Source: a virus. From it: 64,000 bases of DNA. Under the pieces are notes generated by a model that did no database searches, had not been told where the DNA came from, and saw only the letters and a program-made list of their open reading frames with translations. The stretch lies in the IMG/VR virus record IMGVR_UViG_3300031555_002223; one strand, given 5' to 3'. The position numbers and the translations under genes were made by a program. Below are positions 36,187 to 37,868 of this stretch, one piece after another. Position 1 is the first letter of the stretch. The number at the start of each line of letters is the position of its first letter.

Positions 36187-36933
36187 TTACTCTCCAAGCC
36201 GGTAAAGCCAAAAAGTTGGAATGAGTTTATATTTATGACGGCTTGCTATATGAAGCTTTTTAATCTTCTCACAGACGTCATTCGGCACTTTGTCCCAGTG
36301 CTCATTGATGTAGTCGTCAAGCTGTTCATAGGTGAAACCCAGCTTGTCTTCATCGCTTTGGCCACAAAGCCCATCAGACGGAGTTTTCAACACCAAGTCT
36401 TCCGGCAAGCCGATCTCCAGACCGAGCTGCCGCACTTCCGTAACCGTTAATCCTCCCAAGGGAGAAAAGTCACCCGCAGCGTCTCCATATTTGGTACTGT
36501 AACCTACGAAATCTTCGCTATAATTGCAGGTGTTACACACTCGACCGCCCTCGGGAAGATTCTGCGCAACAGCATACAAAACTGCCATGCGAATGCGAGC
36601 AGGAAGATTGATTTCCATATCCGCGCGACCGGAAGGAGCCATGTTTTCAATGACTCGTTTCTTGAGGTCATAGACAGCATCACCGATGTTGATGGTGATG
36701 TAGTCAATGCCGAGATGCTCGCACAGTCGGATACTATCATCAATATCCTTTTGCTTGTCCTGCGGCATCAAAACACCGAGCACTCGCTCTTTGCCAAGAG
36801 CTTCCACACAAAGGGCGGCGCAAATAGAGCTGTCTTTGCCGCCGGAGATGCCGATAACTACCTTGGTATCTGGTCTTGCGTTATTGAAGAAGTAGTCCTT
36901 AATCCACAAGACTACTCGCTTTGCGTTTCCCAT
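36187..36933 (-). CDS. nadE: NH3-dependent NAD+ synthetase
   Basis: GISGGKDSS PP-loop. Confidence 0.85.
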   Translation of the reverse strand: MGNAKRVVLWIKDYFFNNARPDTKVVIGISGGKDSSICAALCVEALGKERVLGVLMPQDKQKDIDDSIRLCEHLGIDYITINIGDAVYDLKKRVIENMAPSGRADMEINLPARIRMAVLYAVAQNLPEGGRVCNTCNYSEDFVGYSTKYGDAAGDFSPLGGLTVTEVRQLGLEIGLPEDLVLKTPSDGLCGQSDEDKLGFTYEQLDDYINEHWDKVPNDVCEKIKKLHIASRHKYKLIPTFWLYRLGE

Positions 36934-37053
36934 GTTACTCCTCCTTGTTCAGACGCTGGCGAATGGTATCAATGCTCTCCTGATTATACATCTTGCCATT
37001 CTCAAACTTCTTAACCATGATGTTGTCGGGAAAGGTGAGAGACTCCTTGAGGG

Positions 37054-37296
37054 TCAGTCCATGCGGGCATGGGGCAGATATGGAACAACCAGCACAATGT
37101 CATCAGAATACTGGTCATAATGTCTCTTGATGCAAATGAGTGTAAACAGCTCAGCGTCATTCTCATAATCCCACTCAATCATGTGGATGGGCGTATCAGA
37201 GAGGTGCAACATGAGCGTTCCATCAGGATAATGCCCCTGCTTAACCTCTACGATTGTAGAGGTATCATCGGGATTGAGAGTATGCAGTTTAAGCAT
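37054..37296 (-). pseudogene. ribose-phosphate pyrophosphokinase N-terminal-domain-like fragment (80 aa)
   Basis: ELFTLICIKRHY..DIVLVVPYLPHARMD parallels PRPP synthetase N-terminus (..AVIPYFGYARQD); terminates at TGA and no frame continues the Prs fold. Confidence 0.4.
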
Positions 37297-37307
37297 ATGC
37301 TACCTCC

Positions 37308-37868
37308 TTAAATTACATCAATCTGGCACATCTTCATGGTGGTCAGCGCAGCCTCATGAGAAGCAGGGTTTACGCCGGCGCACAGGCTGGCATCAACCAC
37401 AATCTTAGCTTCGGGGAACCAGTTCTTTGCCATCAGAGCGTTGGAAACCACACAAATGTCGGTGCAAAGACCGCAGAATACGATTTCCACATCATCAATG
37501 TTCTCAATCATCATGTCGAGCATTTCCATGAGGTCGATGGAGCCGAAAGTTGTTTTTTCGATAATGACAGGAGAGCCTCCAAAATCTTCGACCAGGCACT
37601 CGGGAATCTGCCATCCCTCGGTATACTTCATGCAGTGCTTTACTGGAAGCTTCTTTCCCTCCGGAGTGGAGAGGTAATCCTCATAATGGGTATCCTTGGT
37701 GAAAACGAAATCAGTGTTTTCGCTCTCGTTTTTAATCATCTCTGCGACCTTGGGCAGAATGGCCTGAGCCTCAGGTGTACCGAGAGAGCCGTTGATGAAA
37801 TCGTTCTGCATATCTACAACCACGATAATTTTTTGCATAAATGATACAACCTTTCTCTTATACTCCAC
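37308..37868 (-). CDS. pncA: nicotinamidase / isochorismatase-family hydrolase
   Basis: VVVDMQNDF and catalytic-Cys region CGLCTDICV. Confidence 0.75.
   Translation of the reverse strand: MEYKRKVVSFMQKIIVVVDMQNDFINGSLGTPEAQAILPKVAEMIKNESENTDFVFTKDTHYEDYLSTPEGKKLPVKHCMKYTEGWQIPECLVEDFGGSPVIIEKTTFGSIDLMEMLDMMIENIDDVEIVFCGLCTDICVVSNALMAKNWFPEAKIVVDASLCAGVNPASHEAALTTMKMCQIDVI

Follow-up and report, generated by a model that had tools for sequence, protein, structure and literature searches.

Remnants of a Prs-like and a Nampt-like gene between the pncA-like and nadE genes of a phage

The locus and its two gene remnants

On the minus strand of the viral record IMGVR_UViG_3300031555_002223, within the 64,000-nucleotide stretch analysed here (the window), a pncA-like gene, an open reading frame (ORF) of 80 codons and nadE lie head to tail as one transcription unit (36187..37838). 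An initial annotation, made from the letters alone, had a nicotinamidase gene and a gene for synthesis of nicotinamide adenine dinucleotide (NAD+) flanking an ORF of 80 amino acids (aa), and all three ORFs are indeed found on the minus strand at the positions it gave. Its pncA of 37308..37868 exists as an ORF, keeping in mind that this extent assumes a GTG start (at 37868 in the ORF list) and that gene callers start at the ATG at 37838. Overlooked at that time was a second gene remnant, in the −1 frame directly behind the first. The 80-codon ORF resembles the start of phage genes for ribose-phosphate pyrophosphokinase (Prs), and the second remnant the end of genes resembling Nampt. Phage pairs of ‘Prs’ and ‘Nampt’ genes have been identified as encoding Adps, which converts ADP-ribose (ADPR) to ADP-ribose pyrophosphate (ADPR-PP), and Namat, which makes NAD+ from ADPR-PP and nicotinamide (Osterman et al.), and these names are used below. 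As the second remnant shows, the truncation goes back to one internal deletion that took out two genes. The unit and its boundaries are as follows.

38185..38213, terminator-like hairpin separating the NAD unit from the RNA ligase gene, upstream limit of the unit; 12-bp stem and T run on the minus strand
37858..38127, minus strand, ORF of 89 aa, first of the unit; no Pfam match and only a weak PHROG match
37308..37838, minus strand, pncA-like gene; 176 aa from the ATG at 37838
37054..37296, minus strand, remnant of an Adps-like (Prs-like) gene; codons 1-80 and a TGA that the junction created
37057..37062, minus strand, deletion junction with the 6-nt microhomology ATGGAC, placed by the limits of homology to relatives
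36935..37060, minus strand, remnant of a Namat/Nampt-like gene; last 41 codons and TAA, read at −1 to the frame of the 80-aa ORF
36187..36933, minus strand, nadE; 248 aa, single domain
36175..36200, minus strand, intrinsic-terminator-like hairpin overlapping the end of nadE, downstream limit of the unit; 11-bp stem, 7 of its pairs GC, followed by a T-rich tail
36163..36135, promoter-like site after the hairpin at the nadE end; TTGACC-17-TATTAT with an upstream TG

The 89-aa ORF at the head of the unit is called as a gene on all related contigs.

The 80-codon ORF has a ribosome-binding site, AAGGAGG, 7 nt 5′ of its ATG, and its product ends ...VVPYLPHARMD before a TGA. The product matches phrog_619, ‘ribose-phosphate pyrophosphokinase’ (E=2.5e-8, profile positions 9-87 of 282), and a profile built from 67 full-length relatives, run over all 1759 six-frame segments of the window, finds it with E=4.9e-23 at positions 7-74 of 263; the resemblance to the N-terminal domain of Prs that had been pointed out in the initial annotation is thereby borne out. 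With tblastn it matches 444 phage records, and nearly all of the matches listed are annotated as ribose-phosphate pyrophosphokinase or phosphoribosylpyrophosphate synthetase. It is 42% identical to gp66 of Bacillus phage Hakuna, a Prs-like protein whose gene adjoins a Nampt-like gene, and the relatives of the ORF match such phage Prs-like genes; its ancestor is accordingly placed in this phage group beside Namat-like genes and not among housekeeping Prs. What the complete gene would look like is seen in the related locus L015, where pncA is followed by a gene of 284 codons that shares 94% identity with the window ORF over its first 80 residues; beyond residue 80 it continues ...ARMDRVKNASDVFTLKYF... 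into a region matching PF00156/PF14572. This gene has one in-frame TAG, which is probably a sense codon since TAG recoding seems to occur in the phage group. Over its entire length the L015 protein can be aligned with solved Prs structures; in one of these the counterpart of the ARMD motif, where the fragment stops, is YSRQD, and everything beyond is missing from the window ORF. By homology, then, the ORF reads as the N-terminal third of a phage Prs-like gene. It belongs to the Adps family by similarity, but it has neither the length of an Adps (~260-290 aa) nor the catalytic lysine region, K162 in SPbetaL1 Adps (Osterman et al.), nor the C-terminal phosphoribosyltransferase domain.

A match to Pfam Pribosyltran_N, which the initial annotation had named as its own check, was not obtained, the only Pfam match of the 80-aa ORF being a chance-level one to LHH. 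The homology is not refuted by this, because a longer member of the family, the 179-aa ORF product P0006 from a full-length relative gene, is likewise without a Pfam match, and the test is uninformative.

Past the TGA, the −1 frame is open for 41 codons, GLTLKESLTFPDNIMVKKFENGKMYNQESIDTIRQRLNKEE, then TAA, and ends 1 nt before the start of nadE. The earlier statement that no frame continues after the stop is thus right for Prs, of which there is no further frame, and wrong for the −1 frame, which holds the tail of a Namat-like gene. Searched against 5.8 billion proteins, the 41-codon peptide gave a single match (P0004; 78% identity, E=5.6e-12), a 44-aa ORF in the related locus L014 that lies between a 484-aa NAPRTase-family gene and nadE and is the C-terminus of the L014 Nampt-like gene, which a 1-nt assembly frameshift has split off. 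The window segment is also recognized, with E=9.1e-6 at positions 449-490 of 492, by an independent profile made from 17 Namat-like genes of other loci; this profile has no other significant match among the six-frame segments of the window. By way of L014 the remnant aligns with the C-terminus of SPbetaL1 Namat (9W5X). The Nampt-like catalytic core plus selectivity clamp that characterize Namat (PMC12774641) are absent, what is left being a tail only, out of frame and with no start of its own. The ribosome-binding site of nadE, AAGGAGG at 36940..36946, lies inside this remnant.

The two homologies abut. DNA similarity to relatives on the adps side ends at 37057 (L001) and 37054 (L015), that to the namat-side relative L014 begins at 37062, and the two overlap in the hexamer ATGGAC, which occurs as CGC ATG GAC in adps and as G ATG GAC TGAC in namat. 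Homologies that abut and overlap in such a hexamer are the signature of a microhomology-mediated internal deletion. The reading frame is not kept across the join, and the TGA closing the 80-aa ORF is therefore namat sequence. Judged from the relatives, the loss amounts to ~2-3 kb, comprising Adps codons 81-~284, any intergenic insert, and Namat codons 1-~450-490.

Profiles for Adps, Namat and macro domains find nothing in the six frames of the window beyond the two remnants, and tblastn of the window with the Hakuna Prs and Nampt and with a B. subtilis Prs gave chance matches only. One such match, at 59729..59866 (E=0.016), was considered as a missing part of Prs and set aside, the ORF there reading as CYTH-like by sequence. 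The single indel restoring a full-length prs that would have overturned the original proposal does not exist: none restores the gene, and no part of the window contains the missing 190 codons. Neither pncB, nadD, Nampt, NMNAT nor macro was found in the window with Pfam on called genes and large ORFs and with profile searches, though no dedicated nadD profile was among these; within that limit, and with the six-frame Namat profile, the earlier remark that pncB and nadD are not present holds.

The operon in related phages

A scan of metagenome contigs yielded at least 485 relatives of the Prs-like gene, and the best 80 loci (L026-L105) were analysed. A pncA-like gene is directly upstream of adps in 62 of the 63 loci with enough flank. 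Whereas the window's Adps remnant is adjoined by a 41-codon Namat remnant only, a complete Namat-like gene follows adps in all 22 related loci in which this could be tested; nadE comes after Namat in 21 of these 22, and a macro-domain gene stands between the two in nine. The order in relatives is therefore pncA, adps-like, namat-like, (macro), nadE, and the window has the same order without the middle. The same gene set, macro-domain gene included, is present in a phage record from human faeces, MT835544 (L003, 5998..11248).

The Namat-like genes of relatives bear on the identity of the lost pair. Against the SPbetaL1 Namat structures 9W5X/9W5W the L003 type reaches 445 bits and the L014 type, to which the window's tail belongs, 346 bits; against bona fide Nampt the values are ~188 and 147 bits. 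In the Adps clade 97% of genes adjoin Namat, which bacterial prs genes rarely do (Osterman et al.). Because of these scores and this adjacency, the lost pair was most likely the Adps and Namat of NARP1. On a relative locus, a phage Prs-like query gave a tblastn match of 7e-35, and a B. subtilis Prs query gave no significant one. Extended NARP1 operons have been described with a specialised phosphatase, Adpp, that counters aRES and was searched for as Macro-domain proteins (bioRxiv 10.64898/2026.01.28.702374).

Many of the relatives' Namat-like genes have an in-frame insertion of ~85 aa at residues ~318-320 (GKEIFYLDEQEW...), located in L040 at ~6734..7002 and also present in L048, L055, L066, L073, L076, L085 and others. 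A tblastn gap of ~250 nt had suggested an intron there, a suggestion abandoned as the ORF is continuous and Rfam finds nothing.

Other relatives have alleles of their own. Compared with L035, L033 lacks 1.48 kb in a clean deletion that takes the first ~348 Namat codons and has a 12-nt overlap at its junction (L033 ~6210..6221 versus L035 6222..7701); its source contig is 98 kb long with a coverage of 107x according to its name. From L031, 2.46 kb are absent, with all of Namat and the start of nadE (junction ~1509..1522 versus L035 5911..8371). In L004 (1003..1471) an Adps N-terminus is joined to the last ~100 Namat codons. Among library representatives, P0026 is a fusion of Adps(1-108) with Namat(327-492) and P0085 one of Adps with the C-terminus of the macro protein. 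P0017 joins Adps to the nadE C-terminus by profile, and in P0024 a similar fusion is apparent on reading the tail, a nadE profile match not being recorded for it. By sequence comparison the core of the operon is thus lost repeatedly through clean internal deletions.

A library-wide phmmer search, with the first 80 residues as query and a library clustered at 50% identity, gave 121 matches that were mapped on the profile. A break-point hot spot after ARMD(RV), for which the window, P0002, P0003, P0007 and P0010 seemed to speak, was not upheld, as the truncated relatives end anywhere from position 57 to 224; some excess of end points at 73-105 is to be expected because of the query used and the 50% clustering. 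Three homologues that diverge after ARMDRV had also raised the idea of an intron or a split prs. No Prs exon 2 exists: what stands past ARMDRV is the Namat C-terminus in L004 and an apparently unrelated ORF on the opposite strand in L005 and L006. In these last two loci, which are from different samples (L005 2356..2834, L006 141..840), the Adps-like N-terminus (...ARMDRV) runs directly into the opposite-strand ORF, which is a candidate for a bacterial PtsI-like PEP-utilising enzyme (PEP, phosphoenolpyruvate), and the arrangement could be a rearrangement or a phage-host junction.

Origin and meaning of the scar

Exactly this 80-aa protein is encoded on 23 contigs (26 index blocks), some of them 50-200 kb long; one that was fetched has 102 kb. 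The six copies compared match the window with 100% identity along as much as 5.6 kb, and the exact pncA protein is accompanied by the remnant in 10 of 10 contexts among those listed. As copies on independent contigs are identical, the deletion allele is real and has become fixed in a single clonal phage. An error of sequencing or assembly near 37054, which the initial annotation had wanted checked, is not the cause, given the identity of six independently assembled contigs. Against functional relatives both remnants have the signature of purifying selection, with dN/dS (the ratio of nonsynonymous to synonymous divergence) of 0.033 for the 80 codons versus full-length L015 (at dS ~1) and of 0.14 for the tail versus L014 in the Namat frame (at dS ~1.1). 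Because the Namat tail, now untranslated, still bears this imprint, a recent deletion is the simplest reading.

The explanation preferred here, with a probability of roughly 0.86, is that the 80-codon ORF is the stump left by a deletion of ~2-3 kb which removed the Adps-Namat pair from an NAD+ operon. To judge from relatives, the ancestor would have had a five-part operon, of a type widespread among related phages of gut metagenomes, consisting of pncA, an adps-like gene, a namat-like gene, sometimes a macro gene, and nadE. One microhomology-mediated deletion then joined adps codon 80 to the last 41 namat codons at ATGGAC. Everything that Adps and Namat need for catalysis went with it; spared were the beginning of adps together with its ribosome-binding site, and the part of namat in which the ribosome-binding site of nadE lies. 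As the latter site is within the Namat tail, some of that tail had to survive for nadE to be expressed. The 80-aa ORF is probably translated and most likely a non-functional remnant, and catalysis by it is not plausible because everything after the ARMD motif is absent. Of the two proposals initially made for it, a decayed prs was essentially right and can be refined to the deletion scar of an Adps-Namat pair, an ordinary pseudogene scar inside a known kind of anti-defence module.

The other initial proposal, a stand-alone regulatory domain, has gained no positive support. In its wider form, the N-terminal fragment would be kept as a functional small protein, a regulatory domain or a decoy whose target could be host Prs, the Adps of another phage or a defence protein. 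An intact ORF with a strong Shine-Dalgarno sequence inside an operon, the dN/dS of 0.033 versus L015, and the retention of roughly the first 75-105 residues in other lineages (P0002, P0003, P0007, P0010) would all fit such a protein. Its end, though, coincides with a microhomology junction, its stop is supplied by out-of-frame namat sequence, and it breaks off at profile position 74 of 263, at the ARMD motif. The other lineages have different break points, with tails that are junk or fusions and no conserved short architecture, and their clustering near ARMD is inseparable from the detection bias of a search whose query was the 80-aa fragment itself. All copies of the allele being clonal as well, a functional small protein is a very improbable explanation. 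Even less can be said for a gene that is not truncated at all, its full-length product being restored once an error of sequencing or assembly is put right, or through an intron, programmed frameshifting or recoding of the stop. The phage does appear to recode TAG as sense and the −1 frame is open past the stop, but that stop is TGA, which ends 21 of 59 long stop-to-stop segments on the minus strand, and read-through of it yields no Prs-like sequence. The −1 frame encodes the Namat tail and not Prs, there is no slippery heptamer at C ATG GAC TGA, nadE starts 120 nt downstream, the missing 190 codons do not occur elsewhere in the window, and the six independently assembled contigs agree, so that this explanation can for practical purposes be set aside.

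A different question is what was lost. Were the pair a genuine phosphoribosyl pyrophosphate (PRPP) synthetase with Nampt or NAPRT, the ancestral operon would have been a conventional salvage or Preiss-Handler set. PHROGs and GenBank do annotate the family as ribose-phosphate pyrophosphokinase, a full-length relative aligns with Prs structures, PncA and NadE are enzymes of the deamidated route, and gut jumbo phages with pncB-nadD-nadE clusters have been described (PMC11662467). This alternative is nevertheless unlikely, if worth retaining: the Namat-like genes are far closer to SPbetaL1 Namat, which has been characterised biochemically, than to any Nampt in both types, the adjacency of phage Adps genes to Namat is a habit that bacterial prs genes rarely share, the macro-domain gene of nine of the 22 loci matches the described extension of NARP1, and the phage Prs-like query succeeded in the tblastn search in which the B. 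subtilis Prs did not. It is also rather improbable, though in keeping with the finding that several deletion alleles of the operon exist, of which several keep roughly the first 75-105 Adps residues, that loss of Adps-Namat with retention of PncA and NadE is a recurrent selected event, or that the ~80-aa fragment gained a function of its own, or both. Selected loss could, for example, come about where NARP1 is useless or harmful, the products of the host's defences being unusable or NARP1 itself being sensed.

Several points weigh against the deletion-scar explanation or parts of it. A strong ribosome-binding site, an intact frame and a dN/dS of 0.033 are also what continued selection would produce, and, all fetched copies of the deletion being identical, they provide no measure of selection after the deletion. 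The identity of the first gene as adps and not a true prs rests on similarity and on the neighbourhood in relatives. The PncA-like protein is below the NCBIfam nicotinamidase equivalog cut-off (NF008623, 29.6 versus 174 bits). The 64 kb searched are part of a genome of ~100-146 kb, and a second, intact adps-namat copy may lie outside them.

With the pair removed, the unit would now supply only PncA, for nicotinamide to nicotinate, and NadE, for nicotinate adenine dinucleotide to NAD+. The Preiss-Handler route begins with the one step and ends with the other, and for what lies between the phage would depend on PncB and NadD of the host. The direct route of the NARP1 type from ADPR and nicotinamide to NAD+ would be lost, and the phage could at most boost host salvage of the nicotinamide freed by NAD+-cleaving defences. 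The counter-defence setting envisaged in the initial annotation is correct. In annotations the ORF is to be entered as a remnant, and neither as prs nor as a regulatory protein, and the phage should not be counted as NARP1-positive. Should such losses be adaptive, they would have something to say about what anti-defence genes cost in nature.

Flanking genes, surroundings and known systems

Both flanking genes appear intact from their sequences. The nadE product matches PF02540 with 187 bits and TIGR00552 with 179 bits (cut-off 63.65), has the PP-loop SGGKDS at residues 30-35, and consists of a single domain without a glutaminase domain, as in the NH3-dependent type. A NadE-query scan of IMG/VR returned a single context, which was unrelated. 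By its match to PF00857 (82 bits with a cut-off of 27, E=7e-23) the PncA-like protein belongs to the isochorismatase-family hydrolases, and with the relatives' own profile it has E=4.6e-76. Among solved structures the best match is the pyrazinamidase/nicotinamidase of P. horikoshii, 1ILW/1IM5 (E=8.7e-15); D9, K95 and C129 align with the catalytic triad of that enzyme, D10, K94 and C133, and D49, H51 and H68 with its Zn site, D52, H54 and H71. On account of these conserved residues, the best match in the Protein Data Bank (PDB) and the genomic context, its assignment as a nicotinamidase is well supported, and on account of the missed equivalog cut-off it is not proven. As pncA is only 69% identical to that of L015 and nadE only 47% identical to that of L014, the operon appears to be a mosaic.

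Next to the unit is an RNA ligase gene (38219..39502, minus strand) and, on the other side, an AAA_33/KTI12-type P-loop kinase (34641..35150). Four calcineurin-like phosphoesterases are positioned around it (34075..34644, 35213..35935, 40240..40815 and 40960..41769), and by gene content these surroundings (34075..35935 and 38219..41769, minus strand) look like an RNA-repair or nucleotide-processing neighbourhood. Phosphatases of phages that feed NARP1 have been described. Further upstream, on the minus strand, an 800-aa protein with the shoulder domain of major vault protein (PF11978) is encoded at 44312..46714 and, near it, a 501-aa DUF2828/DUF7788 protein at 47090..48595, a pair unusual for a phage.

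The window has 20 tRNA genes, with a tRNA block at 48648..63588. One tRNA, at 50269..50359 on the minus strand, has the anticodon CTA and the ARAGORN label ‘Pyl’. Three minus-strand genes contain in-frame TAGs: a RecJ-like gene (10900..12666) has five, at 12600, 12441, 12048, 11652 and 11373, a PIN-PhoH-like gene (30568..31836) has one at 31506, and an endolysin-like gene (29190..30524) one at 30224. The respective Pfam domains, DHH/DHHA1/RecJ_OB, PIN_4/PhoH and Phage_lysozyme2/Amidase_2, span or flank these codons. Since there is a CTA tRNA and three genes are continuous only with TAG as sense, the phage appears to read TAG as sense, with TGA and TAA remaining stops, at which most long ORFs still terminate. 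TAG stop-codon recoding is described for some gut phages. A tmRNA-like gene with the tag peptide DNSYFENHLAA is predicted by ARAGORN within the tRNA block at 60197..60535 (minus strand), and a small ArfA-like ORF is called at the equivalent place in a related contig (L017, 3221..3376).

Several known systems invite comparison. With Class I Prs (PDB 4TWB, 1DKR) the fragment shares the beginning of the N-terminal domain as far as the ARxD motif; it differs in having nothing past that motif, and in that its closest full-length relatives are phage Prs-like proteins encoded beside Namat-like genes. The NAD+ clusters of gut jumbo phages (pncB-nadD-nadE, NAMPT, pncA; PMC11662467) are likewise from phages of gut metagenomes with auxiliary pncA and nadE. 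In contrast to them, the window has PncA and NadE only, flanking a decayed Adps-Namat pair, and the source contigs here are ~100-146 kb instead of >200 kb. The extended NARP1 with Adpp (bioRxiv 10.64898/2026.01.28.702374) is resembled by MT835544 and the nine loci with a macro gene between namat and nadE, and differs from the window, in which a profile search finds no macro-domain sequence.

The likeness to NARP1 itself is the closest. The two remnants derive from a Prs-like and then a Nampt-like gene, the defining pair of NARP1, the relatives' Namat-like genes are closest to SPbetaL1 Namat, and the genes are phage-borne with NAD+-related neighbours. In the window, unlike in NARP1, the pair is destroyed, with 80 of ~280 and 41 of ~490-530 codons left. 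A further difference is that in this phage group the pair is framed by pncA and nadE, neither of which is mentioned in the two NARP1 and aRES preprints consulted; this linkage may add a deamidated branch to a pair of the NARP1 type or make of it a dual-route NAD+ module.

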